This document shows, one piece after another, positions 25,837-59,201 of a stretch of 64,000 nucleotides of DNA (its first letter is position 1; every line of letters starts with the position of its first letter). The position numbers and the translations under genes are program-made. Origin of the DNA: Antedon mediterranea (taxonomy: Eukaryota; Animalia; Echinodermata); contig NC_092679.1 of assembly GCF_964355755.1 (NCBI RefSeq), positions 23,605,432-23,669,431 of the forward strand. The letters are read 5' to 3'. The notes beneath the pieces were generated by a model that was given only the letters and a program-made list of their open reading frames with translations, was not told the DNA's origin and searched no databases.

Positions 25837-25954
25837 AGTCCTTTAACTGAAGTATAATTGTTATACTCGACAAGCTGTGCATGTTTATGTTTATTCCATC
25901 CGGTACATTGTACGCAATGGTGCTCTAATCCATTACAAGTTGGTCGACAATAAA
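25837..25954 (-). pseudogene. LRRNT-like exon of gene A: (V)YCRPTCNGLEHHCVQCTGWNKHKHAQLVEYNNYTSVKG(L)
   Basis: tttgacag|TT...CT|gtaagt; phase 1 to 2; aligns with the gene C exon (WNxxxHxQLVE). An alternative acceptor at 26043 would be out of frame. Confidence 0.7.
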
Positions 25955-32925: not shown

Positions 32926-34030
32926 TTATCTGTCAGTATTTCTAGGTCTCATTTCCTGAAGCTGTATAGGCCTAACAGCAACCGGTCGTGCTTGATTGGT
33001 ATTGGCAAGATTTGCTTTCTTAAAGCAACAATCGACAATTGTGTATAGAAAGGGATTGACCGAGGAGTTAATTGGTATGATGAACGTCGCTGACAAAACA
33101 TATATTTCCACAGGAAGCGTCCACCAATCCAGTTCAGCACCAATTGCCATCAATACAATAGGAAACCAGCAACAGAAATCTGTGAAAATGAGAAAGCCTA
33201 TTTTCACTGCTAGTTTGATATCTTCTTTTCTTCTTCGTTTTCTGTTAGCACCTGCTGATGCGCGCTTGATAGACACAAAAATGATTATATAACTCACAGC
33301 GATGATGATAAAACCTAAACTGTTGAATCCTATGTAGATAGCAAAAGCATATTCCCAGCCTGGCCAGTGGCTTTTTGATAATGGCAGTGCAAGGCACACA
33401 CTCTTTACTCCATAATAATATTTCCCGAAATAATGCGACGTCACTTCGTAATACCAGATGTATGTTATGGCGTTTGCTACTATTGGGAGAAAGCTGAGCA
33501 CAATCCAACACACCCATGCAAATCCGATAATAATTCTACAATTTCTGCAACTAAGACGTTTGGTACTAAATGGATAAGCGATGTTTATAGCACGGTCGAT
33601 GCTCAAAAGCATCAATGTAAACACCGAAGACTGACCAGAGAGAGTGGCAATTGCACCAGCAAAACTGCAAAGAGGACTCCATTTCCAACCCCATTCAAAT
33701 GTTGCATATCGCCCTCTGTAATGTATATCTACACTTAAAATGATAATCAAATAGACTACCATTAACAGGTCAGACACGGCAAGGTTGGTGATGAGTGTGG
33801 TTTGGACTTTATTAATTTCGTTATCATTACTTGTGTTGTTATCCTTTTTACACTGTCGTGATATGATAACGACGAAATTGCCACTAACAGCTGTAATTAC
33901 AATAATCCACATCAATACCCGTACGTATTCACTTTCTAGTAAGTCTTCACATGAAGCAAATGGATCTACGCCGGGATGGCAATAATCAATGTCCCCCACA
34001 ATGGAACATAAACATGACGAATCCGCCCAC
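32926..34030 (-). CDS. Terminal exon (hinge + 7TM + C-tail) of GRL101/RXFP-like LRR-GPCR gene B
   Basis: Intact ORF extended to the phase-2 acceptor ttatag|G TGG GCG GAT. Motifs WADSSCLC, SCEDLL, GNFVV, NLAVSDLLM, SIDRA, VCLALP, FTDFCCWFP and PINSSVNPFLY are typical of LGR class C-like receptors. Confidence 0.93.
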
Positions 34031-35231: not shown

Positions 35232-35303
35232 AATTCTGTTAAGTTTTTCAATTCCTCAAAAGTACTCGAATTGTAATCCTGTAAGTTGTTACCGCGTAAC
35301 CGT
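35232..35303 (-). CDS. Last LRR exon of gene B: (L)RLRGNNLQDYNSSTFEELKNLTE(L)
   Basis: ttttgtag|A...TT|gtaagt; 72 nt, phase 2/2, LRR consensus. Confidence 0.88.
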
Positions 35304-35613
35304 CTACAAAATAATAGTTTTAAATAAGTAAATCAAGCATAGGCATAAACATGATTAGTAAAATGTGTAAAACAACAAACGACACCCTAACTCATTAACA
35401 CCCCCACAAAAAAATCAGAGTGGCCCTAAGCTTATTTCGAATGTTAGGATAAAAAATCCAATGAGTAAAAGGTTAACATGGCAGTTGTTTTAACCAGTCT
35501 GTTTTCCGATTATACTCTGTAGTGTTTATTTTAACAGAATCAAGAATCCTCCTGATAGACAAAGAAAATAGGTTGTTAAATATGTATTGAAATTACAACA
35601 GTGTTTAACTTAC

Positions 35614-35688
35614 AATATTCTCAGTGATGAAGCAAAAGAAGTAAATGCATATCGATCTATTGTAGTTATGCTGTTGGAATTTAAATGC
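35614..35688 (-). CDS. LRR exon of gene B: (L)HLNSNSITTIDRYAFTSFASSLRI(L)
   Basis: cttttaaag|G...TT|gtaagt; 75 nt, phase 2/2. Confidence 0.88.
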
Positions 35689-36082
35689 CTTTAAAAGATA
35701 AATCAATCAATTAGACAAGGTATGCCTATTACATTATGAAAGTGTACAACATATATGGGGAATAATCAGGTTGTATTTAAGAGAAATTATAGGTCTTGTG
35801 AAACCAATTTGTCTGTTCTGTTGTCACATGCATATGATGCAATAAATGCAAAAGGTCAATGCGAAGTTGTATATACAGATATGGCTAAAGCCTTTGACAG
35901 GGTCTCCCATAAGTTGCTTTTGTTCAAACTTCAAACAAGTTATTTATCGGACAGGTTTCAGAGAGTCACTTTTGATGGTAACGCGCTTCCAGTTTTATCT
36001 GGCGTACCTCAGGGGTCTATGTTGGGGCCTCTTTTTTTTTATTATGTTTATCAACGATTTTTCCTTTGTTCCTTGTCCCTGA

Positions 36083-39000
36083 AATGTTCACGCACCCGCA
36101 TTGATAACCGTCTATTGGTTTCACCAATATACATGGAATTACATCCCATACATTTAAATTTATAAACAACACGAGAGCGGAACACATCAGGGACAGGGTC
36201 CTTAGGACTAAACAAGTTTGACATTTTGAATGATTTGAAAGCTAATTTAATATTAATACCTTTGCAATATTTACGTGTAATTTTGTCGATTCTTTGTTGT
36301 GCGCATTTGGCAAACTAACCTTGTTTTGTTCAATAATCGACTCAACTGACGCAACATTGCAAGGAGAAAAAATATTATTAAGATATCTGTAAATATTGTC
36401 ATTAATTATACTGAGTGGAAAACAGTTTTTACTTAAAATGGTTTTATGTCATTGTTAAAGCTAGACCAGGAATTATTCAATTTCTAAACTCTGTCAATCA
36501 AAGTACGAACAAGCCCAATTTTGTAAGAAAAGGAAGTGAAACTGTTAAAATTAGTGAGGAGACCCGTGAAGGTAGGCTTTCTGAAGACCGAACCATTATT
36601 GTTTAACATTATATCTAAAAATGAAAGACAATGGTCAATTTCATATTCAATTGTGAACTTGTACATAAATTGGCAACTTGTACATAAACGGAAGTTTGCA
36701 CTCTTAGGCAGGACAGCCAAACCTAACGTTATTATTATTATTTTATAACTAACATTACTTATTTAGTAGCTTTTTCTCCACATAATAATTTAAAAGATAT
36801 TTTCTTTTATCACATTCGGTTAAACGTAGACGAGAGTAGACTCTGATACCATTGTTTATTAAATAACTGTTTTTGTTGACTTTTCCTTGCAGATTACAAA
36901 TGCAACACTTTTTAAAAATTTACTCCATTAGAAGTTTGGAATTTTTTAATTTACATATTAAAGGCATATTACCTTTTTTTTTTCTATTTTCGTCGTTTAT
37001 TTTTATTATATATGTATATGTATTTATTATTACTTGTTGTGCATGGCAATATACTTTTATGAATATATTATGTCCCTAGAGACAAAACGAACACTATATT
37101 TTCTAAAAACAATTTCTTATTAATATGATTTGTATTGTATGTAGAAACGCTCTCATGAGTGGCGATATTAATCTAAACAGATGTGCATTATGTAATGGGT
37201 ACGCACATGCCCAATGTTCTTTCATAGAACCAGAATGGTACTGTACGTCATGTAATATTTCTCTACTTCCGTTTAATCATATACTCAATGATGATGAGTT
37301 TTTACATGAAATAAAACAATTTCACGTAAACCAATTTGTTGATTTTGATCATCTAAATTCATTAAGTATTAACCCTTTTGACGTAAATACATCCATTCCT
37401 TCTACATGTAGATATCATCTCAGCGATAACTTTAATAGTTCAATTGAAAATATTAATAACAATTTTAGTTTTATTCACTTTAATTCACGTAGCCTGGTAA
37501 AAAACTTTACTGAATCAACTGAATATCTTGAAACTCTTAATCACAAATTTAATATATTATGTTTCACTGAGACCTGGTTTAGTTCAAATACTGTACATAC
37601 TTTATATAACATTCCTGGTTATACATCATTAATTTATAAGAAAGGTGGTGGCGTCTGTCTTTATATTATGGATGATATTAATTTTAGAATGAGAGATGAT
37701 TTGAGTTCTTTAATAATGAAGCTGAAAATATCTGCATTGAAATAGAATTAAAACCAAAAAATTATATTTTCTCAGTAATATACCGACCACCAGAAAAATC
37801 CATAAAAACTTTTAATGAAAACATATCACTATTATTTGAAGTAATCAACACAGAAAAAAAAAGTTTTTATGCTTGTGGAGATTTTAATATTGATTTGCTT
37901 AAATTCAGTTCCCATACACTAACATCAGATTTTTTAAATTGTATATATTCAGTTAATTTATTTCCCGTAATAGACAGACCCACCCGTCTCACCCGTACAT
38001 CTGCTACGTTAATTGACCATATCTACTCTAACAATTTTCATGAAGATATTTTTTCAGGATTACTGTATTGTGACATTACTGACCATTTACCTATATTTTT
38101 TATTTCTCATACATCCAAACCGTCTAATAAAATGAATGACCAAAAATATATATTTAAAAGAGTAATCAATGACACTACCACTTCATCACTAGGCATTGAA
38201 TTACTAAATACTGACTGGTCAGAAATAATATCGATTACAAATGACCTGGATAAAGCTTATAATTCTTTTCACACTAAATTTATGAACATTTATGATAAAC
38301 ACATTAGAATATGTAAAAAAAAAATAAATTTTCGCAAGCAAAACAAACCATGGATAACAAATGGCATTATCAACTCCATAAACAAACGAAATAAACTATA
38401 TAAAAGATATATACAATCTGGCAAAGCCACTGATAAAACTAAATATACTGATTATAGAAACAAATTAACTAATCTAATAAGAATATCACGTAGTATACAT
38501 TACAAAAAGCAATTTGACAAACATAAAAATGATATTAAGAAAACATGGCAAACTATAAATTCAGCTCTTGGCAGAAATATAAAAAGTAAACTTCCAACAT
38601 ATTTTTTAGAAAACAACATAAAAATTGATGACGAAATTCAAATTGCTAATAAATTTAATAAATATTTTGTTGATACTGGCCATACACTTTCACAATCAAT
38701 TAACTCATCTCATTCAAACTTTTCAACATTTTTAAACCAACCCAACAATCACTCCATGTTCCTTTCACCAATCACTGAAAGAGACATAATTAATGCAACC
38801 GAAGAGCTCAAAAATAATAAAAGTCCTGGTGTAGATGAAATACATTCCAACGTTATTAAACAAATTTCTCCGTTTATTTCTAAAACTTTATGTCACATCT
38901 TTAACCTTTCATTTAAATGTGGGAAATTTCCTAATGCGCTAAAAGTTGCCAAAATTGTGCCTATTTTTAAAAAAGATGACCCCCATAAATTTTCAAATTA

Positions 39001-40915
39001 TAGACCGATTGCTTTACTTCCATGTTTTTCAAAAATATTTGAAAAGCTAATATATGCTCGTCTAATTTCTTTTTTCACAAAACATAATATTATATACAAC
39101 AATCAATATGGCTTTCGAAAATCACATTCCACAGATCTCGCACTTCTCCACTTATATGAAAAAATAACTAAATCATTTGCAAACAAGCACCATACTATCG
39201 GTATTTTTTTAGATTTGTCAAAAGCATTTGACACCATAAATCATAACATTATTATTTCTAAATTATCGAATTATGGTGTCAGAGGTCTTCCACTACTACT
39301 TTTAAAAGACTACTTATCATTTCGCCAACAATATACATCAATAAACTCAACCAATTCTCAACTCTTGCATGTTACCTGTGGGGTACCACAAGGGTCAATC
39401 CTTGGCCCACTACTCTTTTTAATTTACGTTAATGATCTTCCAAATGTTTCAAAATTATTTAATTTTATCTTATTTGCAGATGACACAAATGTTATTATTT
39501 CTCACGAAAACAAAAATAATCTTGTATCTATAATTAATAATGAACTTAACAAAGTGTCTCTTTGGTTTAAAGCAAATAAGTTATCATTGAATATTTCTAA
39601 AACAAATTATATTTATTTTAATATTAATAAAAAAAGTAACAAACAGCTAACAGAGCAATTATATATCAATGGCAACCAAATAAAGAGAACAGAAAACTTA
39701 AAATTTCTTGGAGTCACTATTGACTCGGAACTAAATTGGAAACCTCACATAACATATTTAACTAAAATAATCTCGAGAAACGTTGGAATTTTAAGTAAAT
39801 TGAAGTACATACTTCCTTTAAACATCTTATTTTCCCTGTATAATACTCTTATTTTACCCTATTTATCATACTGCAATGTTGCTTGGGCTACAACTGTAGA
39901 TAAATTTACTGGATGCTGCCCCTGGACAGGTTCTGATAACACGAAAATTAATTCTCTCTTTAAATTACAAAAAAAGGCTATCAGAATCTGTTCGGGAGCA
40001 CCTCCAAAATCTCATACTAAACCACTTTTTTATTCTCTAAATACTTTAAATACATTTGATATAAATAAACTCCAAACAGCTTTATTCATGTTCCGCTTAA
40101 ATCATAATAAATTACCAACTCAATTTTACTCCTATTTTCAAAATTTTAATCATTCTTACAACACCAGATCTTCAACTGCAAAAAATCTGATAAACGAAAA
40201 GCATACCATATTACTTAGAAGAACATCTTTTATTTACAATGGACAGTATATATGGAACAACTTACCGCTCAATCTAAAAGCAATAACCATCATAAATACA
40301 TTTAAAACAAAATACAAACAAACACTTATTTCAAACTATTTAGAACATTAGTAATTCACAATTGCCTTAAGACTGTTTTTTTTTCTTTTTTGTTCCTTTT
40401 GTTTAATTTTATTTGTCAATTTGACGAAAGAAAGAAGTTTATTTTTGTTCTCTCACTTAAATTAAATAATTAAATATATTAATTATCTGGAGGACCAAAC
40501 TTAAAGCCTTGGCTTAATGCGTCCTCCTCACACAATTGTTTTTATTAATTTATGTTACTGTTATATTGTATTGTATTGTGTGAAACAATAAACTTGAAAC
40601 TTGAAAAACTTTATGTTGGGGTGCTGATCGTTAATATAGTCAAAGAAAGTATTTGCATCATCTTTTGTATTGAAAAAAAACAAAAAAAACATGACCGAAG
40701 CTTGTGAGAAGTTCTTTAACCATGTTTGTTCATGATGACCCATACATAAATTGGCTAAAACAGGTACAAGTGAGGATCCCATTGACACACCGTCTATTTG
40801 ATCATAAATATCACCATTGAATATGAAATTGTAAATGTCACATTTACATTTTAAGGCAATTTGCCTTTTTATTAAATGCCTCGCTATAGTCATCCTAACT
40901 CGTAAGTTTGGTGGT
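36083..40915 (-). mobile_element. Penelope-like retroelement remnant (36083-36660 and 40607-40915)
   Basis: FNGDIYDQIDGVSMGSSL..VLANL and HPNIKF|TIEYE..LSFLD..VFRKPTFTG: Penelope-type RT motifs continuous across the inserted LINE. Confidence 0.85.
36661..40606 (+). mobile_element. Near-complete CR1/L2-group LINE; single PHD-APE-RT ORF (37125-40351) with one frameshift at about 37720
   Basis: C4HC3-like N-terminus; HFNSRSL, TETW, GGGV, YRPP, GDFN and TDHLP (APE); full RT with FADDT; 3' stem-loop and aataaa(cttgaaa)n tail. Confidence 0.93.
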
Positions 40916-40920
40916 ATTAT

Positions 40921-42367
40921 TTACCTCCGCCAAGGAGGTATATGTAATCGATCGCGTGTGTTTGTCTGTTTGTCTGTTTGTTACTTGGCAAAAAGAATTT
41001 TGCCAAGTATAGTATTTACTTTGTTTGTTTGTTTGTATGTTTGTATGTATGTTTGTTTGTTAGCACGATAGCGCCTACAGTTTTCAAGTTATCCTTCTGA
41101 ATTTGTGGGTTTAGATAGGTATATACTTTCAGACCATGCCTATGGAAAATCAACAACATTGATTTATTAATAACTTCACAAATAACAAAAATGATATTAT
41201 TTTCAGACCGGCTAGTTTTAAAAGATAGGAGACAATTTTCAAAAGCAGGTGAGCAGTCTTAAAGTAACACGTAAACTGAAATTACATTTTCTCGAGAACT
41301 ACTAGTCCAAAAAACCTCATTTTTGGACAAGAGGCAAGGATTATAATTTTTGATTTGTAATTTTAAAACAAAAATTGGTTGAATGTACCGGCTTTTTCAT
41401 TCGAGTAGTTTTAAAAAACCTATTTCTTTTCAAATTCACCCGTTTGGTTTTGGCGTTGCTGTTCTATTGTTATTCAAATTAAACTATTGTTAGTTGATAA
41501 TTAATTTTGTTAGTACCGGCGTATGTCCTTTCTTATTTCATTCTGTACATAGGTATATTACTTACAGAACATGTCTATTGATTTTCAGGAAAACTGATAT
41601 ATTGGTCATGTCTCAAAAGCTTATCTTCCGTACGATATATTAAATAGCACGCATTCTGTCTTTTTTTAACATGGACATATTCTTTGATATGGACCAAAAT
41701 ATTAGTCGACTGGTCACGCGGTTAAGCTTACTACATGGGTTAAGGCAGAGGCGCCGCAAATCGGCACAGCTTCAAGACACTCCTCGACCATTATTCTGGT
41801 CAATCTTGATTTTAGAAAGGTCATTGTTGCAATACCGGAGTTGTTTGTATCAAAAAATTATTTAAACAAATTATTAACCCCAGCAGGATTTTAACAATGT
41901 AAAGCTAATACCTAAAGCAAACAAATGTATCTTTCAACATGCTCCGAGTCAGTGGATATATTTTGCCAAGTACTTCACTCAGTTTCTGAGTGCTTTCATT
42001 TGTTTGTTAGCAGGATTACTCAAAAAGAGTTATAATTGCTGATTTGTAATTTTAAAACATAATTTATTTAATGTGCACGTTTTTTGATGGGAGTAGTTTA
42101 AAAAAACCTATTTCTTTTCAAATTCACTCGTTTGATTTTCGCGTTGCTGTTCTATTGTTAGTCAACTGAAGCTATTGTTGTTGAAAGGCTTGTTACATAA
42201 CCATTACACCACACTCGCATTCACATGCTTGTATTTAAATTAGCCTAAATCAGAAACAGCATTAAGACACACACAAATATATATATATTTCTTTTTAACC
42301 GGAGAAATCTTATGTAGGAGAATTTTACAGTAGGCGGAGGTATGTACTCTCGGAGTGTCTTTCTAGT
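40921..42367 (+). mobile_element. Helentron-associated (HINE/DINE-1-like) element with a second HINE nested at 40981-41998
   Basis: ttacctccgcc...ggcggaggta subTIRs, (GTTT/GTCT)n, 3' hairpin and ctagt. The nested element has acttggcaaaa/ttttgccaagt subTIRs. Confidence 0.75.
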
Positions 42368-43375
42368 TCATGATTTATCTAATAATATCTTACTTGAAAG
42401 AGTGTCTGTTCACAAAGACCTTGGTATTTTTTAGATAGTTCGTTAACCTTTTGTAAATATATTGATTTTATAGTCTCTAAATGCAATAGACTTCTTGGTT
42501 TTCTTTGGAGACATTGCAGACATATTAATGATAAAAAGGCATTAGTTATTTTATACAAATCTTTAGTTAGGTTGAATCTTGAATTCTGAAGTGTTATTTT
42601 CAACTCTATTTCTCTTGCCCAGTCTTGTAGACTACAAAGTGAACTCAATTATTCATGGTAATTTTGAAGTGTTCTTTCCTATTTCTGTTCCACAATATCA
42701 ATTGTAATCCATCCTTTATTTTCTATATCAAGAATGAGGGTAAATATTACTAAAAATGGTTTTGTTAATCGTTTGCCTCCTAAGTTATACCACTTACTAT
42801 GTAAAGTTGATGGATCTGTAGATATTTTTGTTTATTCACTTGCTTGTTTCCGTCACAAGGTCTTGTCTAATGTCCGTAATATCTAAATGTTGTCTTGTTC
42901 TCTGTTGATTTTGCTTGTATATTTTATATTATATATAATAATTTATAGCGCCCTTTAAGTTTACGTATTTTGGAAAGTCTCACGTATTTTGGATTAGTAT
43001 AGCGCCCTCAAGTTGATGTATTTTGGAAAAAATTCTGCGTATTTTGGACTGATGTTCACCAACTCGACTCTTCAAATGACGCTAGAACGCGTTGCTTCCG
43101 CCACCGCTGCAATGTACCTATACCAGGGCGCTATGCGGCGTGGGTAGACGTGTTTTAGACCCAAGCAATCATGGTAACGAAGAAAAAACTAGAAGAGATC
43201 AAGCAATCGCTTGACATCGCAGCTAAATGAACTCAAAGAAGGCCAAAAGAAACAGAAGGAGATTAGTGAATCTTTCATTAAACGGATTGGAGTATTGGAG
43301 GCCGACAATGGAAAAAAAAAGTAAGCAAAATTTAATTACTGGAAAATAGAGTGAACGAATTAGAACAATACCGTA

Positions 43376-45523
43376 CCAGTGGGACAGCCAGTCGACAAAT
43401 CGTGTCAAATTTCGACTCGGAGAGGGCGCCCTAATTTTCTAATTTAGTTCAAAATTGCTAAATTTTAGGGTGTTGGAAAAACACAATATTTGTAAATTTA
43501 GCTGATTATCGGAAAAATATTGTTAGTGAAATAAATTCATAAATGGTTTTAATATATTGTCATGTAAAATTAAATGTATTTGAACAAAACGATAATCTGT
43601 AATTTAACGGCAAAATCAACCAATGTCTTTTTTCCGAAATTGTACCCTAGAAAATCGTTAAAATAAAATATTTAGAAAAATTGAACAGTCCTGAATTTAA
43701 AATCCCTGTTAGAAAAATTAATAATCTACAGAATACGATATTAAGATACAAAATTCGGTGGTTGGGATGCAGCTCCGACTATTCAAACTAAAGGTACCAC
43801 TATTTGTTCCATCGAAAACTAGCGAAACCGCCATTTTGTAAACACATCGTCATCGTGTTTATGAATTTATTTATAGCGAACGATATACGCGATGTTTAAG
43901 AATTCATATAAATAAATACATTCCAATACAACGTATATTATTTACTTGTTTATTTATCACAGTATACATTTTAGTTGAGGAATATTTATCATAACTATTA
44001 TAATAGCTTTTATACGAGTCCGAGGCCTAGCCCTATTAGCGAGCGATTGTTCCAGGGGCGGAAAGTCACTTAGTGACGTTGTGATCGGGTGCGTCGGGCC
44101 TAGCTAATATTAATAATATGACCTGAAATAAGCGGCTAACAAGAACTGTTATATACTTGCTTACAATTGTTTTGTTATTGATGAACAAACAAGCAATTAG
44201 ATTGAATAACAAATTATTTATTCATTTTTTTTGGGTAAAAACATGTACAAACTAATACTGTATAATAATTAATATAAATTAATAGTATTATTATTAATAC
44301 AGTATTAATAAAATATAAAATAGGCCTAACATACAATAAATATTCAATTTTTAAGGTCTACCACATGACAATAACATAATTTACAGAGTATAGTGTAGTA
44401 GGTTTGCATTCAACATAAATATTTGTATTGTAATTCATCTAAATCCTCTGCAACATACATATTTGTAATTCAACATTTTGTTTTAAATAATTAAATTATA
44501 GTTTGGGTATATGACAATGTCGGTAGGTACCGGTGTCATCTTTTTATCCACTTCACTCTCAGTTTGAAGTCACAAAGACAAAGAACTCTGCATCATCAAC
44601 GCTTCCTGAAAGTGTCAGAAAAAATAATAAATATTATTTAAAAAAAATTTTAATGTCTGGTTGTATATATAATTATAATATTATATGACATAAAAGTAAG
44701 GCAAATGGAAGCTGTATTTTATTAATTAATATTACAGTATTTACTACTGTATTATTATTTATATAATCTAGGCCTACTAGTAGCCTAGCTAGGCATCTAT
44801 TGAGCCTAATAAATCAAATAATAAATGAAAAATAAAATTAATACTGATTGAAAAAAAGTATTTTTTGGGAGGGATCAGATCACCAGGCTAGGCCGGCCAG
44901 GACCAATGATACTCGTAACCAGTACAACTTAACGACTATCGGATCAGCATCAACACAGTGTACAACACACGTCTCGCTATCGCCTATACTGACACACGTG
45001 TCTCGCGTTGCCGAAACCACGCTCACAGCTAGAAAATGTACCTACCTTTCGAGGCCTGAGAATACACCAACACATTTTGAACAGGATAGAAATATATCAT
45101 ACTCGATTAAACTAATATTATTCTTGATAAAACAATTGATTATAATTTTTTTAATTTGTTGGGATGCACCTCCGACTATTCAGAAAATGGACAACAAAAC
45201 AGTAGTCAAATCGTACCACATTTATAAATTTCACGAGTCCCGACTTCAGTCGCCGAATGTATTGTATTAGCTTCGGTTTCTTTGAAGGAAACCGATTGGT
45301 TATTCAATTATACTTATTAGGAAATGCTTTTACCATAATAGGTAATGTTGGGCGGTTCTTAAATATTCATGAGAGCTTAAAATAAAACAGCACTTATTTG
45401 CTAGGCGACGAAAAATCGTGGTTTCAGTTTTCAACGATAGGTGGCGCTTCAAAATCGTCAATGCGGAAGTAAGTCGATTTTACACGATTTAACGGTCAAA
45501 ACGCGAAGTGGCTTTCCCACTGG
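43376..45523. mobile_element. Non-autonomous DNA transposon, TA target
   Basis: TIRs CCAGTGGGA(C/A)AGCCA flanked by TA; interrupts LINE ORF1 at a Tyr codon. Confidence 0.8.
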
Positions 45524-47791
45524 TACAGCAGATACAACAATGTTCTAATTACGGAACTACAATATGTGCATTCCTCATACGCATCAGCTGCATCGGCTGA
45601 CCTTGGTGTTTCGTCGGTGGAGTAGACCGCAGATAAAGAACGTGGGTCTATCGAAGAAGCTGTGTTAAAGTTATTTAAAGAGAAAATGAATGTTGACGTT
45701 AACACTTGTGATTTGGAAGCTGTACATATTTTACCAACTAAAAGTAATTCGCAATTAACTAGGCCTTTAGATTTTGTTCGCGAAGAAAGAAACAGAAAGT
45801 GATGAAACCTAAGGTAAAGGTCAAAGCAGAGAATATTTACATAATGATCATTTTGACTAGAGCAAATGCGGAGTTATACAAGCGTACCAGAGATTTAAAA
45901 AAACAAAAGAAACTAGAAGCCACATGGACCAGAAATGGTAAACTTTTTATTAAACGTATTGATAAAAAATGTGTGCATATTAAGAATACATTTGACATTA
46001 ATGACCGTGCATAATTCTTTGCTAAAAAATAACCAATATTCAGTTCGTTATAAATTTGTGGTGTTATCATTAGCAAGTATGTTATTGTTAATGGTTGAAA
46101 CTATTACACAAGTACCAAATATGTTAACAAAGAAAGAACTAGAAGAGAACAAGCAGTCGCTGAACCTCATGACATCTCAGTTGGAAGAACTCAAGGAAGG
46201 CAAAAAGAAACAGAAAGACATTAATCATTTTGCAATTAAGACAGCCAACATAAACCTTCCTCATGGAAGAACCTTTAATTGACCTTAATGTAGGCTCCCT
46301 TTCATCATCTGTGTTTAATCCTAGCAATCTTGACGGAGATAGAGATCCTGATAATAATATTCTTAATACTATGAGTGCAATTACTACACAAATGAACCAT
46401 TCAGTAGAGAATGTGATATTAAAAATAAGTTTACTATTATTCATTTTAATAGTCGTAGTATGGGTGCAAATTTTGAGAAAAATAAAAAATTATTTATCAG
46501 AGTTGGGATCATCACCTGACGTAATTGCAATTAAAGAAACATGGATACGACCTGATAATTCGGTTACTTTTTACATTAATGGCTATGTATTTAATAGTAT
46601 TTCAAGACAAGAAAAGTATGGAGTGGGTGTTGCTCTTTTTATAAGAGAAAGTCTTAACCATAATGTCCGTGATACCCGACTGCTGTGAATATATTTCTGT
46701 TATTGTCTATATTAATAATTCTAATTCAATTTACATATCATGTATATATCGTGCACCTGGTACAGATATAAAAATATTTACTGACACATTTTCAGATCTG
46801 GTCAAGTCAATAACTGATAAGCGGTTATTTATATGTGGTGACTGGAATATAGACTTACTTAAACATGAGAGTAATTGGAACACTAAATGTTTTATTGATA
46901 ATAGTTTTAGTTTAGGAATTTTTCTTCTAATTATTAAACCAACAAGAATAAGAGAAACAACAGCAACCCTAATAGATAATTGTTTCACTTGTGATGTTCA
47001 TTCTGTCATAAATAGTGGTATCTTGATTAACCATATCACAGATCATTTACCAATTTTTACAACAATTAATTATAATGTTACGCCAAGTACTACACATAAA
47101 AATATTACTAAAAGATATTTTATTGAGGTTAAAGTGAATGCTTTAAAAAATGACTTGCGTTACACTGATTGGAACAGTGTATTTATTGAAGAAGATCCAA
47201 ATAATGCTTACGATGTTTTTCATGTAACATTTTATACACCTATTCAATAAATATTTCCCTCCCCAAAAGATTAAATTGACGCAGAAAAGTAATTCAAAAC
47301 CCTGGCTCACATCTGGCCTAATTAATGCATGTAAAAAGAAGAATAATCTATACAAACTTTTTTTTAAAAGATCGAACATCATCTTCAAATAGGTATAAGC
47401 GATACAAAAATAAGCTAACAAATATTATGAGAAATGCTGAGAAACAATATGATAATAACTTATTATTGTTAAAACAAAATGATATTAGGGGTACTTGGAG
47501 TATCATCGATGGTCTGATTAAAACAAGAAATTATTGAAATCTGTCAAAAGATTTTATCGATAATCCTGTTGATACTGTAAATGGTTTCAATAATGTTTTT
47601 GCTAAAGTAGCCAAAAATATAACAAGTCAATTTCCAAGTCGTGATAGTCCCAATGATTATAATAAAAAACGTATTCTAAATTCTATTTTTTAGAGGCCGG
47701 CACTTCCAAAGAAGAATTAATGACAGAAGTGAACTTATTTAAGTCTAAAAATTCCAGCGGACATGATTATGTACCTATGTCAATAGTTAAA

Positions 47792-49216
47792 GCCCCCTTC
47801 CCTACGTTTTTTTAGATCTAATTTAAGATCACAAACTATATTTAATGTAAAAATAATACTATATGGTCCTATTGCGATAACTTTTTTTCGTCTTTAAACG
47901 GTTAAAAATGTGAAAAATAAGTCGATTCTAATAATTATAGCGGCCCGCTATAAATCCCAAAATGCATTGCGCGCGGATTGATATTGTTGTTTTTAGTCGC
48001 GTGGAAGCGACTCTATAGTTCACTATGTCGGTCGGTCGGTCTGTCTGTCTGTCGGTCGGTCTGTCTGTCGGTCTGTCTGTCGGTCTGTCTGTCTGTCTGT
48101 CGGTCCGGTATCACTATGCGTTTTATCGCTTTATGACCTTATCTTGATATCAGTTTAATCTAGCTAAGTCAATTTTTCACAGAATATTCCTTATGGCCAA
48201 GAATCGATGTGGTTATGTTTTCACGGTGCGCAATAAAAAATTACGCGGTCTACGCACGATTTAACGAAATCACGTTTGTAATCATATCTTAACAACCATG
48301 AATCACAATTAAATAAAATTTTGTACTAATAAATTTCAGGGCATAAATCATCATATGGCAATACAATTACGTGCATAGCGCATGTAACGCATGCGTAAGC
48401 GCGCTTAAAATTTTCAAAATTTATTTTCGATGAAATAAGAGTACGTTTCAGGCAATTTTAAGCGTTTACAAAATTGCCATGAGTGCGCAGATTTTTGCGC
48501 GCGCACTGCGCGTTAAATGTTATTGCGCACTCTTCTTGCCCGATTTCTGTTTTCTTGACTTACTTTTCAACTCGAAATTACGTTAGCCTATACGAGCACG
48601 TCAAAAGTGACAGGCTACGCACGTGTAAATTAATAAAATATAAATGTTTTTAAACATTTCAACATTTTTAAACATGTTCAGTAATTTCGGTCAGTATAGT
48701 TCACTATGTCGGTCGGTCCGTCTGTCTGTCGGTCTGTCTGTCTGTCTGTCGGTCTGTTTTTTTGTCGGTCCGGTATCACTATGCATTGTAGCACGCGACT
48801 TAATGGCTGTTGGCCTTGTTCACCTGTAATTCGCCCACTTTTCGATCGATCGTGAGGCCAAAACAAATGGAAGACTCCTAACTCTTCAGCGAAAATACCG
48901 GGTTTTCCCCAATTTGTATCAACGGAGTCTGGCAAAAATAGAAAGACAATTAATGCAGCAACTATACAACGTCAGGCTAGGTATATAGCTAGCGTACGAT
49001 GTTCGTACGTTACCGATGTTTACCAGCTAGGCCTAAGACCGTCCACGAGAGGTCGATCGCCGCGAGCTACTTAGGTAGTGCATTGTTTCTCACTTTTTAT
49101 CATAATTTACCATAAAACGTACATTTAAGACAAGGAATGACATGGTTTAATGTTTTTAAAGTGATATATATGTATTATTTTCCAAAAAACGTCCAAATTT
49201 GCAGGGAAGGGGTCTT
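47792..49216. mobile_element. Kolobok-type MITE
   Basis: ttaa|AGCCCCCTTCCCT...AGGGAAGGGGTCT|ttaa; the LINE RT sequence resumes on both sides. Confidence 0.82.
47991..48820 (+). mobile_element. DINE-1/HINE-like element nested in the Kolobok MITE
   Basis: tttt-agtcgcgtg...cacgcgact subTIRs, (GTCT/GTCG)n and a 3' hairpin followed by ttgtt. Confidence 0.75.
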
Positions 49217-50370
49217 TAAACACATTATATATGAAATCATTGAGACATTGACACATATTTTTAATCGTTCGCTTTAGACTGGTATTTTCCCAGATACCCC
49301 TAAGATTGCAAAAATTGTTCCTATCTACAAAGCTGGGGATAAAAGTAATTTCTCAAATTATCGACCGATCTCCTTGTTGCCCCAATTTTCTAAAATTTTA
49401 GAAAAATTATTTAACACCCGTCTGTTGAAATTTATAGACAAATTTGATATTTTATATTCAGGACAATATGTCCATTAGCCATGCATTGCTTCACTTTTCA
49501 CAGTTCTAAGGTAAATAAATTGACGTTGAATCATATTAAAACAAAGTATATTATTTTTAGCCGCAAAAACAATTATGAACCAACAAATTTAGTTATTAAC
49601 TAAATAAAATAAAGTTTTTAGGAGTTATTATTGATGGAAAATTAAATTGGAAGTATCATATTGACTATATTCATTCCAACATTTCTAAAAGTATTGGAAT
49701 TATCTATAAAGTAAAACATTTACTAAATACATCAGCTTTATTTAAATTAAATATAATTCATTAGTTTTGCCTTATTTTACATATTGTTGTGATGCCTGGG
49801 GTAATACCTTTAAAACTAATTTAAATTGTTTATACATATTACAAAAAAGGCACTCAGACTTGTTATGGAAGTCCAAGTAAACCAATTTTTTATTATTTTT
49901 ATACTCTTGACCTTTATAATTAAATAAAACTATATACAGTTTCTCTAATGCATAAAGCTTGCCATAACTTACTCCCAGCGATTGTTCAAAAGAATTTCAT
50001 TTTATGCTCAGTTGTCCACGATAAATATACTCGTTAAAAACACCAATTCTACCAACAAAACAAAACACTAAAAAATCATTAGGTTTAGTTAGTAAAAGGG
50101 TTAAACTTGAGCGTGAACTACCTGAGACTCTTAATAAGTTACATAAGAATCCTATCCTTTTAAAATAAAATACAAAAATAAATTACTTTTGCAATACTCT
50201 AATTAAAACAGGTATTTTTTACAATTACATTTTACTCTCTGAGAAAACTATCTTTTTTTTTTGTTAAGATAACAAAAAAAGATTGTTTGCATTTTCTTAA
50301 AAGTTACATTTCTTTTTGTAATGAATATTTATGCATGTTTATGTTTTTTGTGGTAAATGGGAAAAAACAC

Positions 50371-50624
50371 ATTTGGTTTATGGCCACATTCCTTTAAAAA
50401 AAGATACAAAAACTAAAAATTACAAATTACAAAAAGCGGTAGAACCAGGATCGTCCCGGCCCGACAAGGGGATGTGCATGAAAAAGCGATCACCATTTGG
50501 CTGATTGCATGTCAAGTGGCCCAGGGACAAATGAGCCGTTTTAATAATTTAAAAAGGGTTACTTAATATACTCACTGTATTTTCATTGGGTGACAATGTA
50601 ACTATTTGGTTTATGTACTAAAAC
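50371..50624 (-). pseudogene. Two decayed LRR cassette exons (50371-50391 truncated; 50576-50624 with a deletion and lost AG)
   Basis: They retain the flanking intron modules, the atactcac donor or ctttaaa acceptor, and part of the caatgtaactatttggtt core. Confidence 0.65.
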
Positions 50625-50831
50625 CGTTAAAAAATAATGCAAACGTACAGTAGCAATTAGCAGTGTTACCAGGATCGTTCCGACAAGGGGGATATGCAAC
50701 AAGCGAAGCAAGCATCATCACTTGGTTGGTGCTAGGGCCACAGTTGGGGGTCCAGGGGAAGAGTGACGTTCAGGGTATTTAATTTGAGGCAATTTTAATG
50801 AATAAAATAAGTTAACTTAATATATACTCAC

Positions 50832-50903
50832 AGTTCTTCCAATGCTGTCAAATCAGCAAATGCATTGGCTGGCAATGTAACTATTTGGTTACCGCTCAAA
50901 CGC
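50832..50903 (-). CDS. LRR cassette exon of gene B: (L)RLSGNQIVTLPANAFADLTALEE(L)
   Basis: ctttaaag|G...CT|gtgagt; 72 nt, phase 2/2. Confidence 0.87.
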
Positions 50904-52436
50904 CTTTAAAGAAAGAATACAAACGTAGAATACAATTGTACAAATTACTACAACAAATTACTTATTTCATTATATTATTTCCGCTGAACGACACGAAATC
51001 ACAAAAAAACAGTTTTATTTTATGGTGTTTTTTAATGTGTTTGTTATTATTGACCGTTTTTTTATGATGTTTTATGACGTTATTGCTATGCCTAATTAAT
51101 TTCCTACAATGTCATGTTATTTTTATTTTTTTAGTGTTGAAACATTGTCGTCATTGACGTTTTAAAGTAAGATGATCCCCAAATCGTACTATTGTTGTGA
51201 CGTTTATACGTGATGGCTAAGCATAAAACTATATTAAAGTAGACATGTTCGTAACATTTACTTATCCTGAAATCAAAAACGTCTATAACCTTTGACCTGG
51301 TACATCATGCTATATCAGAGCTATCAGACTTTATAATGACCTAATGTTAAAGGATAGGAGACAATTGGTGGTCTGGGACTGTGTCTCAAGTAAACTGGAA
51401 CTAAATTTCCAAAAACTTTATTTGTGTACGAAGGGGAAAGTTATAATTTGTAATCTGAAAACATAATATGACTTAATAGACCAGTAGCCCAGAGGGGTCA
51501 ACCTAGCTGGAAAGTTAACCAATATTTCTATGCATGTGGCAATTATCTACTATCTATCAATGTATGCAAATGACAGTCTGGCGCAAAGTTTACATTGTAA
51601 AGGGTAAAAAATGATCAAGATCAGCTGAAAAGTTAACCCCATGAAATCTTTTGCAAATTGTTTGCCATAGAGCAAAGTGTAATGAGTGACTATTTCCAGA
51701 CAATTTTAGTGGTTGGGGTGCCTGTCAGACCTCCATTTCAGGATGGCCAACATTGAGCTAGATCAGCTTAAAAGTTAACCCTCTAAAACTGGTGGGAAAA
51801 ATGTTCAATAAACTCATAACTATCATGAATGACCATTGCCAGACATTTTAAGTGGTAGATTGTGCCCGCCAGACTAGAACTAGAATCGTGTGAACGCAAG
51901 TAGTAATTCTTTGATCATGGCCATTAATCGCCACGTTCTTAATGTGTCAAGAATGCACATACAATGGAATGCCTTGTTGCATTGACTTTATATATTTATA
52001 TGTTTTTGTTCTATGAGCTCTTAGATTAAGATTTTTTTTTTCTCTTTTGCTATGAATATAATTATTATGTCACCATGATATTCCGAAAAAAAAGTTAATG
52101 AAAGATGAATGAATGAATGATACAGATCTTTAATTATATTTCTAATTGATAGTCACTTCGTTACTAAATAGTATACATAATTAGAGTTTAAAATTGTGTT
52201 TCTATGAACAGCATTTATCGATGTGCAAATTAAGTCAGAAGTCATAATGCAGGTTTTGTAGTAATTTTCACTCAAAATGTCTCGTGATTTCCAAAATTGA
52301 AGACATTGTGTGTTATCCATACCACTAAGTGCTTGGTGTTTGTAAGTCTTTCTGCTTTAGGTTAATGATATAGATGTAGGGTAAGCTGGTGTGAACCATC
52401 TCTTCATTCCAGTTGAGAATCATTGCTTCGGTCTTA

Positions 52437-53155
52437 AGCTCTGTCTACATTACTTATTATTTATTTAATTTCAATCTTTCTACATAACAAAAAAAGACAT
52501 ATAAGTATAACAGCAGAGTAGCGGAAAAGCAAAAGTAATAAAACTGTCATCTTGTGATGTGCTTGACCAGCCCCTGTCAACTAGGATGATACAATAAAGC
52601 CGAGATTTAACAAATTTAGAAACGTACATAGACAAATATGCTATAATAAAATGTTAATAAAAGTGTTCTAAAAATACAATTGCTGATAAGATTGTATAAA
52701 AGTTAAAAAGTTAAAAATTCTGATTGTATAAAAGTTAAAAAGTTAAAAATTCAGAGTAGGTACAATCTAAAAAAAAATCATGTACATTTTCAAAACTTTT
52801 GGTTTATAAAAATATGAAAAGTTAGAAATCTATAAAATGTTGCTTTAAACTGTGTTTAAACTTAAAAAACGACTCTTCAATAAGATTATTTCTGATCGTA
52901 GCACCAAGTTCTGAAAACATTTTAGGAAACCGTACTATCCCTGAGTATTTAAAAGCATCAGTACGAGCTCTACCATGATGAAAGGTGAGTATATCTAGGT
53001 GTCGGTTATTAACTATCAAACTTTATGTGACAAAAAAATGTGATGTGCCCATATATGGAAATGATGTCATATCACTACCATATTTGGGAATATCACTATT
53101 ATATTTGGGCACATTACACTTTTTGTCAAACTAGTTTGATTGTGTAGACAGAGCT
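52437..53155. mobile_element. Harbinger-type MITE (TTA TSD) interrupted by a minus-strand LINE 3' fragment (about 52452-53010)
   Basis: tta|AGCTCTGTCTACA...TGTAGACAGAGCT|tta; the ARTDAFKYS ORF fragment and ttattt tail belong to the LINE. Confidence 0.75.
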
Positions 53156-53661
53156 TTAGTAAGGTACATATTGATGTCTATAATGTGTAGCTCATCAGAT
53201 GACTGAGCTGGACTGAGCTGAACTGAGCTGAACTGAACTGCTGGGCATAGCCTATCTCACATTAAGTGCATAATCCACTTTTGTGTTCTATTAGTATTAA
53301 TTAGTGGCTTTATTTGAAATTTTATACAGTACTTGTAGCTCCTGAACGTCTGCGATATTATATGATTATTTTCTGTCAGTGTCGTAAAGGAACAGGTAGA
53401 GAGTATATTGGCTGCAAGAATTTGTGTATTGTGAGTATGGTAGAGTTGTTTGAAGAACGCAGGAAAGCCTATTGTTGTGATGATTTTTATGATTTTGGGT
53501 TGCGGGTGATAACAAAGTATTTTGGCTACAGCTGGTTTGGGAGAAACGGCATAGAAATATCGAAGTCGAAGGATAACATTCATTGCAACCGTTACAAGGG
53601 TAGGCCTATATTCGATGGAGATTCATCTATAGATAATAAAGTTAACGGTCAATAACCTTAA

Positions 53662-53996
53662 AGGCCGGGCACACTGTCTGGCACGAAGAACAGTTTGCTC
53701 ACTAAAAATTTTTCGTAAATTATGATTGTATTCAATCAGAGTGCTTTCAAACAAAATTATACGCCACACACTGACTAATAAATTAGATTGTACATGCGCA
53801 GTGGAATTTTCTTGTCAGCAGTTAGCTCACGTTCGCCGCACAGTGTGAGGAAAAAGAAATGCGTGAAAAATATTAAACATGATAGATATTTTCCTCAACG
53901 GCATCCATGGCCAATCACGAATTTCCCGCCGCACAGTACACTGTGAGCAAAGTTTTATTCGTGCCAGTTGGCTCAGCCGATAGTGTACGCCGAGCT
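53662..53996. mobile_element. Harbinger-type MITE
   Basis: Imperfect TIRs ggccgggcacactgtctggc / gccgatagtgtacgccgagc with TWA-like flanks. Confidence 0.5.
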
Positions 53997-55384
53997 TTAC
54001 TTCAAACCATTTTGTCACAAAATATCTCATTATAGGCCTATACAAAATATAAATGTATATATTCTGAAACATTTGAACAATAATAACTGTTTCTATGGTC
54101 AGTAGTTATCGAGATATAGCATATCAAGGTCAAAAGAAAAAAAATGGCATTTCCTGTAATTGTCAGAATGTTTTAGAGTAAATATAAATATGTGTATATT
54201 CTCAGTATTTAAAGCCCATAGTTTGCCGAGATATTGAAATGCTACTGAAAAATATCAATTTCAAAGGTCAAAAAATGCAAGAAATAGAATTTCCGGGCAT
54301 TTTTGGCCAAAATGAGAGCAGAGCAAATATAAATTTATATATGTGAACTTTATTCAATCAATCGTACATTTGTTATAATGGTAACCGCAATAAGGTATAA
54401 TATTACAAATAAATATGTTCTGAATATTTTGGTACCAGAAACATGTCAATAAACAAATTAAAATGTCCATATCTTAAAGATCTGGAAATTTTTACTTGTT
54501 TTTCCGGTCGAAAATTCCCAATACTACCAAATCCGTTGAAATCCGTTCTACTCTACTATTTAAGTTAGCTTTAGGCTAATCTATGTATGTTTGGGGTGGT
54601 TGTTCAATACTAGGGAGGCATGTTTTACAAGATAAGCTTTTGAGCTGATCTACTGAACATTAAAAATGTCAATGGCAATGGTCATTTATGATAATATTAG
54701 GGATCATGCTGAACATTTTAAAGCATGTTTTATAAGGTTAAGTCGAATTTTTGGAGGGTGGGGTGTTTCACAGTGTCTGGCGGGCAATTAGAATGTTAAT
54801 TTAAACTGATCTAGCTCATTTGTGGCCCTCCTGAAATGGGGTCTGGCAGGCACACCCACCAGTAAAATTGTATGGCAATGGTCATTCATTACATTTCACT
54901 CTATGTCAAACAATTTGCAAAAGATTTCATTGAGTTAACTTTTCGGTTGATCTAGATCATATTTTTGACCCTAGTACAATGCCCCTCCTAGCCACACCCA
55001 CCAAAATAAACTCGCCAGACTGTCATTTCCATTTGATATGTACGTTGATAATTGCCACATGCATAGAAATTGGTTAACTTTCCAGCTAGGTTGACCCCTC
55101 TGGTCTCCTGCTCTATAATGTCAGGTGTTTCGACACACAAGTAGTTTTAAAAACCCAATTTGTTCAAATCAATCCGCTTGTTTGAGGCGTTTTGATAGGC
55201 TAGTCTATTATACTATAGGAAGCAATCTCATCCGTTTGGCTTTTTTTTTTATCTAGTAAAGTGGTGGTACGGTCCTGCATGGTTAACCAAGCACCACTGT
55301 CTTAAGCCTGTTTTCCAGCCGACGTTATTCGACGACGCTATCATCGTTGATCGTTAAAAGTTAACTTAAGTAATATACACTCAC

Positions 55385-55456
55385 AGTTCTTTCAATGCTA
55401 TCAAATCAGCAAATGCATTGGCTGGCAATGTAACTATTTGGTTATAGCTCAAATAC
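55385..55456 (-). CDS. LRR cassette exon of gene B: (L)YLSYNQIVTLPANAFADLIALKE(L)
   Basis: ctttaaag|G...CT|gtgagt; 72 nt. Confidence 0.87.
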
Positions 55457-55801
55457 CTTTAAAGAAAGAATACAAACGTAGAATACAATTATACATTATT
55501 TTAATGTGATACAAATTTACTACAAAATACACATTTCTACAAAAAAAGTACTTATTATTATATTATTTCCGCTGAACGACACGAAATCACAAAAAAACAG
55601 TTATTTTAATAATGTTTTTTTATTTTCATGACTGTTTCGGTATTGTTATGCCTATTAATTACCTACACAATGGTATGTTATGTTTTTTTAAGTTTTTGAA
55701 ACAGTAAAGAAAAGTGGTACGGCCCTGCATGCACTGTCTTAAGCCTGTTTTCTCGACGCTATTATCGTTTAGTTGTAAAAGTTAACTTAAGTAATACTTA
55801 C

Positions 55802-55873
55802 AAAAATGTCAATGCTGTCAAATCAGCAAATGCATTGTCTGGCAATGTAACTATTTGGTTAAAACCCAATTTC
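55802..55873 (-). CDS. LRR cassette exon of gene B: (L)KLGFNQIVTLPDNAFADLTALTF(L)
   Basis: tttaaag|G...TT|gtaagt; 72 nt. Confidence 0.87.
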
Positions 55874-57063
55874 CTTTAAATAAAAAGTACAAACGTAGAA
55901 TACAATTATACATTATATTAATGTGATAAATATTTACTACAAAATACAAATTACTACAAAAAAGTACTTACTTCATTATATTATTTCCGCTGAACGACAC
56001 AAAATCACAGAAAAACAGTTATTTTATGGTGTTTTTTAAGGTATCTCTGTGTTATTATTTGACCGATTTTTATGACTGTTTCCTTATTTTTATGCCTAAT
56101 TATTTTCCTACAATATCATGTTGTTTTTATTTTTTTAGTGTTTGAAACATTGTCGGCATTGACGTTTTAAAGTAAGATGATCAAAAAATCGTCCTATTGT
56201 TGCGACGTCTATGTGGACTGCACCCGATTCTGTAGCTGTTAGTACATTCAACGTGGAAGACTATTGACAGTCTACCAGAGACCTATCTGACTGTATTAAG
56301 TACTTTTAATACACGATATCGCTGTCATTAGGTTCCTATCTGGAGACAATTTGTAACGTTATAGCTATATTCAATATAAAATCCACTCGGCAACCAGAAT
56401 AGTATAGTAGCACAGGTTATGGTATTGCCATGCAAGAAAGGCCTAGGCCTAGTCAATTATTGTACGAATTACGTAATTAGTTTAGTAGCTCATCTACCTT
56501 TTTAGCAGGGCATAATGAATATCGTAGCTAGGCTAGGCCTACTAGCGTGAAATCAACCAATTATTTGGGTGGTATGAGGGGGGTGGGTAGGAAGTTAAGT
56601 ACGAGTTGGCATGGGTACGAGTCGACCAGGGTACACCCACTAGCCCCACTACTAGAGCATAGGCTATAGTCCTGCGAGAATGGGAAATCTGGCCTAGATA
56701 GGCATAGGCCTAAATTAGGTACGCCGCAAAAAAGCTATCCTATGAGCATAAAAAGGCCTCGTAGTAGAGCCAAAGGTGTTAGCCCACTACTACGGATCAC
56801 TAATTAATCTATCTAGGCCCGGGCTAGCTAGCCTAGGCCTATAGAGTTAATTTTAAATTAAGTAGGCCTAGGCCTGGTTGGTTGGTTGCTGGGCTTCAGT
56901 AATTTCGGTCGCATTTTCGGCCTACTTTTCAGGACATGTGAGAGGTGAGGTAGGTTAGCCCAGCTAGGCTAACCTAACCTGTAAGTAGTATTCTAGCCCA
57001 TCCATGATGCCTGATGGGTACGAGTTGGCAGCCATTGGTACGAGTTGACCCGTATTCTAGCTA

Positions 57064-57265
57064 GGGTGTCCTGGTCAACCCGTACCCAAACCAACCCGTA
57101 TGTAATATAAATATACTTTTAATAGCATTAAACATGGGTACAGGCGCGCCAGCCCATGATGAGTACGAGCCAGCCCATGATGTGCAGGAGTGGGCCAACA
57201 TTTTGGGTATGAGTAAACCAAAATTTGGGTACGTTGTTGGCATGGGTACGTGTTGACCTGTATCC
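57064..57265. mobile_element. MULE-type MITE nested in the foldback arm (mirror copy at 62862-63064)
   Basis: GG...CC termini, cgtaccc subterminal repeats, 9-bp TSD ttctagcta. Confidence 0.75.
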
Positions 57266-59201
57266 TTCTAGCTAATCTTACTAGGCCTAGAGTAGAGTAG
57301 GTCTATGCTATACCCAGACCGGTTACAATAATGGTCTATTCATTCTGTTTATACTGTAGCTTTATTGATAGCTGGGTTGGGGCGGCTTTTTCTCATTCTA
57401 AAACAGATTTCCTTATCATAATAAAATAATATATAAATTTAAATGTAATATTGTATACATAATATTAGTAATTGCCATTGCATTTATTATAATTATATAT
57501 TATACGGTTACCCCTTAATTATACTATAGTATAATTTTCTTGTTATATTTTACAATATTTTCTTCATAGTTCAACAATTTTTTCTTTCACAGGAAAAATT
57601 ATCATACTGAATCATCACACACCAAGTCTCATAAAGCTCTACTGTATTTCTCCAAGGTACTCCAGCTACATGGTATTGCCTTGAGGCTAAACTACAGTAA
57701 ACGATATACTGGCACTACCATCATTCCTGGCCCGTCAACCTGGACCACATTACAGTATGGTCCAACACATAAGTACAGTAGTCGTACTACTGATTCAAAA
57801 TAGTGAATTACACCCTGTGGTCAAGGCTTTATTTGCTCTTATGCTTATTTCCTCCAAATACAGAGTACGTAGGGCTTTCAATTTGCTTTTATACCTGTTA
57901 ATTTAAAAATCGTTTATGCCTATTGTTGCATAAAGTATCAAATTTAGACTGTAAATACTGGGATGATCACCCTAAATTTTCTTTTTCAATTAACAATTTT
58001 ATATTTCACAGCTGAAAAATGCACTAAAGCATCATATAGAGATTTTTTATTCATAACTGTTAAATTGCATCCCAATACATGGTACCTATATAAAAATACA
58101 AAGGCGGCCAACACAGATAGTTTGATATATACAGTACTCTCTTATAAATAGATGTATCTCTCCAAACTACTCCAACTACCTAATTAGCATACTATTGTAC
58201 ACTTTGTAGACAAGAAATAAATTGTATCCACCTAGAGGACTTATGGTAGTACAGTCGATCGTCCTGTCACTGGCCCGGTCAACATAATCTACGCCTAGAT
58301 TATTACAGTAATTAAAGTACATTATTACAGAGATTTTTTTTTTTTTGCAGATCAAAGTTATGTGTATAGAAAGCAGTACTCGTATTAAAAACTAAGCAGG
58401 TTATATTCTTGTACGCAAACTGGCAGGATGTTTTGAATATTTTTTGTTGTTGAAATGATGGAATCCTAACGTCATTTTCCACGAGCTGGAGAGTGACAAA
58501 GACATATTACGACCCTTTTATTTAAATTTATTTGGATAGACCTCCATGTAAATTCATTAAAGGCTATATGATTGTTTTATATTTTAATATGTGATAGTAG
58601 ATAATCATTGTGCATAATGAAGACTATGAATCTAATATTTACTTGCATTCTCATCTTTGTTTATGTAACTATTTTGTCTAATTGCATTGGATTTTTGTAT
58701 AGGCCAATGGCATTAATGTTTTTCTCAAAGCAAATTAGCCTAATAATGCCATATTTAGACACATAATTCATTGATTTCTGATATTCTGTACTTGTGTATG
58801 CATTACTAAAATAGTAGTTATTTTATTACTTTTATAATGTATAAACATTTATTCATTTTTTTTTTACATTTTTTAATTTAAAAATTATTAAAATACCTAT
58901 CTACCTTTCTGTTATTGTTACTATTATAATATTTTTTGAGGCAGATTGATTTCAATAAAAAAAAATTAAAACAATTAATTTGACTTATACTGTACTATGT
59001 TAGTTCAGGAGATGAAGTGTGTGTGGGCAGAATCTGGTGTGTTGGAGGTTGGTGATGCGAGGTGTATAGTTGTCACTTTAAGACCTAAATTAGATGTTTT
59101 CTGAAGAAAAGAAGTAAGAGGATAGGCTTTCAAACAACTTCAAGAAGATTCACACAGAAATAATTACTTCCCAATAAAATAGTATGTAACTGTGTATATT
59201 A

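Follow-up and report, generated by a model that had tools for sequence, protein, structure and literature searches.

Split leucine-rich repeat exons with a variable concave face in a tandem cluster of crinoid GRL101-like receptor genes

We describe a gene for a leucine-rich repeat (LRR) G-protein-coupled receptor (GPCR), here called gene 1, in a 64,000-nucleotide stretch of the crinoid Antedon mediterranea (assembly GCF_964355755.1, contig NC_092679.1, positions 23,605,432 to 23,669,431; hereafter the window). Five LRR exons, E1, E2, E3, E5 and E6 (Table 1), run in frame into a last exon that encodes a short cysteine hinge and a rhodopsin-type seven-transmembrane (7TM) domain, and the reading frame of this exon is open across 367 codons. 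An LRR ectodomain followed by such a hinge is the architecture of the GRL101-like, or type C, leucine-rich repeat-containing GPCRs (LGRs; classes after PMC4561518 and PMC11863921). The 7TM domain is likewise nearest to GRL101-like proteins: the best 20 matches of the gene 1 7TM protein all belong to this group and all come from crinoids (Antedon mediterranea and Anneissia japonica), at 52-82% identity. Among the matches listed, the closest relative by 7TM domain is P0002 (82% identity) and, among longer proteins, P0113 (84%). Gene 1 joins these two with support of 100/100 in a tree of 33 7TM regions, within a crinoid-only clade of 18 rows. Gene 1 is one member of a tandem cluster of crinoid GRL101-like LRR-GPCRs, and two paralogs sit downstream of it within the window. 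Pfam scans of the closest crinoid relatives (P0002, P0113 and P0098) found no LDLa repeats, and the 5' end of gene 1 lies outside the window; such repeats are present in the more distant crinoid proteins P0116-P0119. The P0113 model was used for its LRR and 7TM part only: its C-terminus resembles a fused retroelement, and its N-terminal 340 amino acids are unmatched in the window. A homolog search with the LRR region of P0098 gave, for the most part, generic LRR proteins without specific names.

All five LRR exons are in phase 2-2 and bounded by AG and GT. Each has CT or TT as its last two bases and G or A as its first, so that a leucine codon is formed at every join among the five, as an earlier, sequence-only reading of this DNA had claimed in stating that the junctions split the repeat strand. 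With one repeat per symmetric phase-2 exon, the exons agree with the arrangement set out for plant receptors (exons of 69-78 nt, intron in the first leucine of xxLxLxx; PMC3050792). The junction leucine lies within a beta-strand near its start in an AlphaFold model of the paralog P0098 (strands 41-45, 185-189 and 209-213, for example); the upstream exon would therefore supply two concave residues and the downstream exon three. That model was built from a single sequence, with pLDDT mostly 70-90 in the LRRs and low in the 7TM domain, and its exon borders were placed by homology. A six-frame profile scan of the window gave 7 LRR matches with scores of 19-56 against a shuffled maximum of 1.5, namely the five exons of gene 1 and two of a downstream paralog; it found no further intact LRR exon in 35232-64000. 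An LRR-like stretch near 24940 had no score in the scan, and a candidate small exon at 34612 was rejected as giving an in-frame stop. From E1 to the last exon, the introns measure 345, 4481, 15143, 310 and 1201 nt.

The exon anatomy is real, and the splice geometry itself is ordinary and already textbook. Rice LRR-kinases have 72-nt exons whose phase-2 introns split the first leucine of xxLxLxx, as in ERECTA and SERK (PMC3050792); phase-2 introns are also found in the LRRs of gonadotrophin receptors and of brown-algal ROCO genes, the latter with 72-nt exons (PMC11378527). Given these precedents, the view that the split layout is something special is not supported, and its presence in plant kinases means that it needs no splicing explanation.

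The variation among the repeated exons, or cassettes, is concentrated on the repeat's concave face. Among four intact 72-nt cassettes (E1, E2, E3 and the paralog 3 exon that begins at 337), 12 of 15 variable columns fall in the five concave-face codons x2, x3, x5, x7 and x8, which make up 15 nt (Fisher p 1.2e-8; the four copies are not independent). Nonsynonymous differences per site (pN) reach 0.54 at the concave codons vs 0.024 in the other 18 codons, where synonymous differences per site (pS) are 0. Pairwise divergence between cassettes is 33-80% at the concave bases, 2-5% over the remaining exon bases and 8-18% in the upstream introns; E1 and E3, for instance, differ at 12 of 15 concave nucleotides, 2 of the 57 other exon positions and 20 of 255 in the upstream intron. 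That the concave codons change faster than the adjoining introns argues for diversifying selection.

E5 and E6 are not duplicated, and they show a like concave-biased divergence against relatives. The sequence-only reading had called these two membrane-proximal exons unique and likened them to a constant region. Their uniqueness holds: the window contains no near copy of either, and E6 has 34-40 mismatches to the cassettes over its 72 nt. This uniqueness within the gene is explained by their being old repeats that were conserved separately; the 25-residue penultimate repeat recurs through the Antedon subfamily. The analogy to a constant region fails on the binding face, which differs from that of P0113 at 9 of 10 residues (1/10 concave residues match, 31/38 others); the comparison with P0002 gives 2/10 and 28/38. 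Across 12 proteins, mean entropy is 1.9-2.0 bits at concave positions vs 0.7-1.0 elsewhere; the set comprises the window gene and 11 of 27 parsed crinoid proteins, after near-duplicates, mis-parsed rows and proteins without the 25-residue repeat were dropped. In four of four runs, contigs show Asp in place of Arg at one concave codon of E6, as either an allele or a paralog.

The cassettes also bear marks of turnover in the germline. E1 and E2 are alike in both intron flanks; E3 has an upstream intron of the E1 type, and the intron after it is common to paralog 3 (171 matches, 21 mismatches). Relics are found in both genes: a dead 48-nt cassette after E3, and a 66-nt cassette with a donor-only remnant near 549 in paralog 3. 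Repeat number in the paralogs ranges from 2 to 13. P0002 carries a three-LRR block twice, P0113 has six cassettes, and P0098 (XP_071956026) has eleven homogenised cassettes with a scaffold difference of 1.2/19 and a concave difference of 3.8/5; its cluster-mates P0014 and P0099 have 2 and 0. Dead intronic LRR exons and variable repeat number, both seen here, are features of ROCO-like shuffling. A crossover between homologous introns would yield the same hybrid strand as a skip, and the split geometry would therefore work at the DNA level without alternative splicing. As a side observation, dozens of distinct contigs resemble the cassette core at 55410-55444, which points to numerous related LRR exons in other parts of the genome; contig depth, when summed across the core, is far above that of the adjoining intron, although depth is not a copy number.

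We favour, with a probability of roughly two in three, an LRR-GPCR family whose germline diversity arises from the duplication, loss and exchange of exons and from selection on the concave face, with mostly constitutive splicing and occasional skips. Unequal crossing-over or conversion between near-identical exon-plus-intron units would alter repeat number and would make the hybrid strands that skipping would. Diversifying selection may then tune the predicted binding face toward a variable ligand, putatively microbial or chemical. Most transcripts likely include the intact cassette exons.

Several points weigh against this explanation. At the concave codons pS is high too, at 0.32 (15.5 pooled sites), so that pN/pS is about 1.7 from four exons and no formal selection test; some of the contrast between face and core could stem from conversion of the exon core. 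The repeat numbers of the relatives come from predicted gene models, several of them visibly partial or fused, and the 5' part of gene 1 beyond the window may hold many more cassettes. Of the two crinoid genes for which isoforms are annotated, one has a pair that differs by exactly one LRR, and alternative splicing is reported for brown-algal ROCOs that have this exon layout (PMC11378527).

The chief rival, which we consider unlikely, takes regulated, combinatorial exon skipping as a main origin of receptor variety, a mechanism put forward for ROCO genes and demonstrated for Dscam. The frame allows it, as the sequence-only reading had said of any subset of cassettes: all 8 of 8 subsets of E1-E3 join to E5, E6 and the last exon without an internal stop, and skips would make 3 new strands. 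Yet frame compatibility follows from descent by exon duplication and is therefore silent on whether skipping is used. The further proposal of combinatorial isoforms survives in so far as the frame permits skipping and hybrid strands; a combinatorial scale is not supported by the three visible cassettes, which give at most 8 isoforms. Up to nine ROCO transcripts have been reported with 72-nt phase-2 exons (PMC11378527), and the 11 cassettes of P0098 could give many forms. At gene 1, the cassettes have GTAAGT or GTGAGT as donors, as do E5 and E6, and their acceptors have pyrimidines at 13-14 of 16 positions vs 10-11 of 16 for E5 and E6, so that the splice sites of the cassettes are at least as strong as those of these two exons. 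The E1-E2 intron, at 345 nt, implies no steric exclusion, and none of the three inverted-repeat pairs in 34000-64000 straddles a cassette, all lying inside single introns, although short pairings could escape. The DNA thus offers no sign of regulated skipping, in the form of weak cassette splice sites or mutual exclusion. Splicing of the Dscam type was rejected for the exons in view, where three intact cassettes are additive in frame, with neither steric exclusion nor a long straddling inverted repeat.

Annotated isoforms point the same way in the main. The 32 crinoid cluster members listed include 4 labelled isoforms from 2 genes. RefSeq isoforms X1 and X2 of an Anneissia paralog (P0105/P0101; gene of XP_033096707/XP_033096713) differ, at the level of gene models, by exactly one 24-residue LRR, which speaks for skipping; the Antedon pair differs in the C-tail, and three bivalve GRL101-like genes have isoform differences outside the LRRs, as do 4 of the 5 annotated GRL101-like sets overall. 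Since one feather-star paralog has a RefSeq isoform without one LRR, occasional skipping is plausible, and single-cassette skipping probably occurs at a low level as a by-product of symmetric exons. Exon-exon joins are absent from the 15 joints listed in each of two contig comparisons (drawn from longer sets, with 389 and 3 further); the contigs, from five sequencing runs, cover introns as well as exons, behave as DNA and have no bearing on splicing. Our search for LRR-skip isoforms of gonadotropin receptors found no relevant paper, and FSHR and LHCGR skip variants were not used as evidence. The Antedon mediterranea paralogs P0098 and P0091/P0094, with long homogenised cassette arrays and variable faces, are better subjects than gene 1 for tests of splicing and selection.

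Quite unlikely, too, is that the cassettes are a decaying, relaxed tandem array in a gene that may be a pseudogene, its variation without function. Dead cassettes, a frameshifted neighbour and a 15-kb intron full of mobile-element pieces would fit such decay, but the exon core is held at a pS of 0 and the low pN given above while flanking introns and concave codons diverge, the 7TM exon remains open and all splice sites are intact. A more ambitious proposal, in which hypervariable LRR exons are shuffled in the germline and also skipped combinatorially, so that half-and-half strands furnish an immune or chemosensory repertoire coupled to G proteins, we hold to be distinctly doubtful. Somatic DNA rearrangement or copying of cassettes, as in lamprey VLR assembly, is highly improbable: near-identical cores with variable faces, the many contigs that resemble the core (38-48 contigs with one variant in X2/X3) and DNA joints that skip about one 417-447-nt unit would suit it, but the cassettes are ordinary spliceable exons within a gene that looks complete, rather than donors flanking an incomplete gene, and the joints, found at 80% likeness, could be paralogs misplaced on a tandem repeat.

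Several known systems come close to gene 1 in one respect or another. Brown-algal LRR-ROCO genes share one LRR per 72-nt phase-2 exon and dead intronic LRR exons (PMC3341825; PMC11378527), as well as repeat numbers that vary between paralogs and variable residues on the concave face; the Ectocarpus ROCO genes are described with this pattern of evolution (PMC3341825). ROCOs are intracellular GTPases, whereas the crinoid gene encodes a GRL101-like GPCR, and the ROCO type I exon border falls after the strand (its consensus ends LxxNxLx) and leaves it whole, whereas here the strand is cut. Inverted intronic LRR exons, as in ROCOs, were not found in the six-frame scan of the window. Plant LRR receptor kinases whose LRR domains are split (ERECTA, SERK and rice group 5; PMC3050792) have the break in the same leucine and the same phase; they carry a kinase instead of a GPCR, and their intron-rich groups have few selected LRR sites vs the strong concave variation seen here. 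Type C2 (GRL101-like) LGRs and the snail SudRes2 cluster share LRRs, a short hinge, a rhodopsin-type 7TM domain and clustered paralogs (PMC11863921; PMC11398393), and the snail cluster, 12 genes strong and GRL101-like, is linked to resistance to a parasite, the schistosome (PMC11398393). Classic GRL101 has LDLa repeats, in contrast to the homogenised cassettes of variable number in the closest crinoid relatives, where the Pfam scans detected none. Among echinoderms, the sensory tentacles of a starfish show enrichment of a GRL101-like gene (PMC6267866), and a survey of insulin-type LGRs gives one GRL101 ortholog per species (PMC8286064). Modular units and variable binding faces also recall Dscam (per PMC11378527) and lamprey VLR (per PMC3341825); gene 1 differs from Dscam in having no mutually exclusive arrays and no more than 8 possible forms from the exons in view, and from VLR in showing no sign of donor cassettes beside an incomplete gene.

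The remaining features of the window belong to the two downstream paralogs and to mobile elements. The 7TM exon of paralog 2 is likely that of a pseudogene, and its frameshift rules it out as an alternative last exon of gene 1. This paralog keeps its N-cap and 7TM exons and has no intact LRR exon between them, as if an entire symmetric block had been lost. Most differences between the 7TM exons of gene 1 (34029-33330) and paralog 2 (19887-19177) fall in two loops that are likely extracellular (6 of 22 columns in one and 14 of 24 in the other vs 12 of 191 elsewhere, in regions picked after viewing the alignment). The foldback upstream of E1 has 2.4-kb inverted arms that are 98% identical, a 2-kb inner palindrome at 94% and an 8-bp direct repeat at both ends; it holds no open reading frame of at least 120 amino acids and is likely a non-autonomous DNA transposon. 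Within the E3-E5 intron, DNA contigs join across 36655-40607, 43368-45524 and 47786-49216 (the last in four of four runs), so that forms without these pieces exist; the first holds an 883-residue reading frame resembling a reverse transcriptase of long interspersed nuclear elements. Decayed frames of non-long-terminal-repeat retroelements were seen by eye in translations of 2772-5114, 22778-24365 and 45917-47250, and minisatellite arrays lie at 9700-10550, 26101-26856 (period about 20/60 nt) and 30223-30857 (period about 75 nt).

Table 1. Features of gene 1, its downstream paralogs and the upstream foldback, in window coordinates
Feature	Position	Strand	Basis
E1, cassette LRR exon, 72 nt, phase 2-2	55802-55873	minus	profile scan; weak Pfam LRR_8 match
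E2, cassette LRR exon, 72 nt, tandem copy of the E1 unit including both intron flanks	55385-55456	minus	
E3, cassette LRR exon, 72 nt; upstream intron E1/E2-like, downstream intron like paralog 3 at 549-337	50832-50903	minus	
Dead cassette of 48 nt where intact copies have 72; acceptor AG lost, stop in frame	50577-50624	minus	
E5, penultimate LRR exon, 75 nt, 25-aa repeat conserved across the Antedon subfamily	35614-35688	minus	
E6, last LRR exon, 72 nt	35232-35303	minus	
Last exon, hinge and intact 7TM domain, 367 aa, GRL101-like	32926-34030	minus	Pfam 7tm_1 E 6e-25
Foldback element, 7.7 kb, in intron upstream of E1; intron homology resumes beyond	56221-63907	.	
Paralog 2, LRR N-cap-like exon, ends in identical split Leu, then no intact LRR exon	25837-25954	minus	profile scan
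Paralog 2, 7TM exon, 1027/1121 nt identical to gene 1, frameshift near 19177	18768-19888	minus	
Paralog 3, LRR N-cap exon	5732-5864	minus	tblastn E 1.6e-7 with P0113
Paralog 3, cassette reduced to 66 nt, weak donor	1464-1529	minus	profile scan
Paralog 3, intact cassette exon, 72 nt	266-337	minus	donor-only remnant upstream near 549

We found no paper on hypervariable LRR cassettes in crinoid GPCRs in a search that covered literature outside subscription. The germline hypervariability is a worthwhile new case of an already known type of evolution, and the splicing claim is possible; combinatorial skipping, if true, would mean that an invertebrate deuterostome has a GPCR with a repertoire like that of Dscam. 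On the explanation that we favour, crinoids would possess a GPCR family whose LRR exons evolve like those of algal ROCO genes or plant immune receptors, with change concentrated in the binding face.

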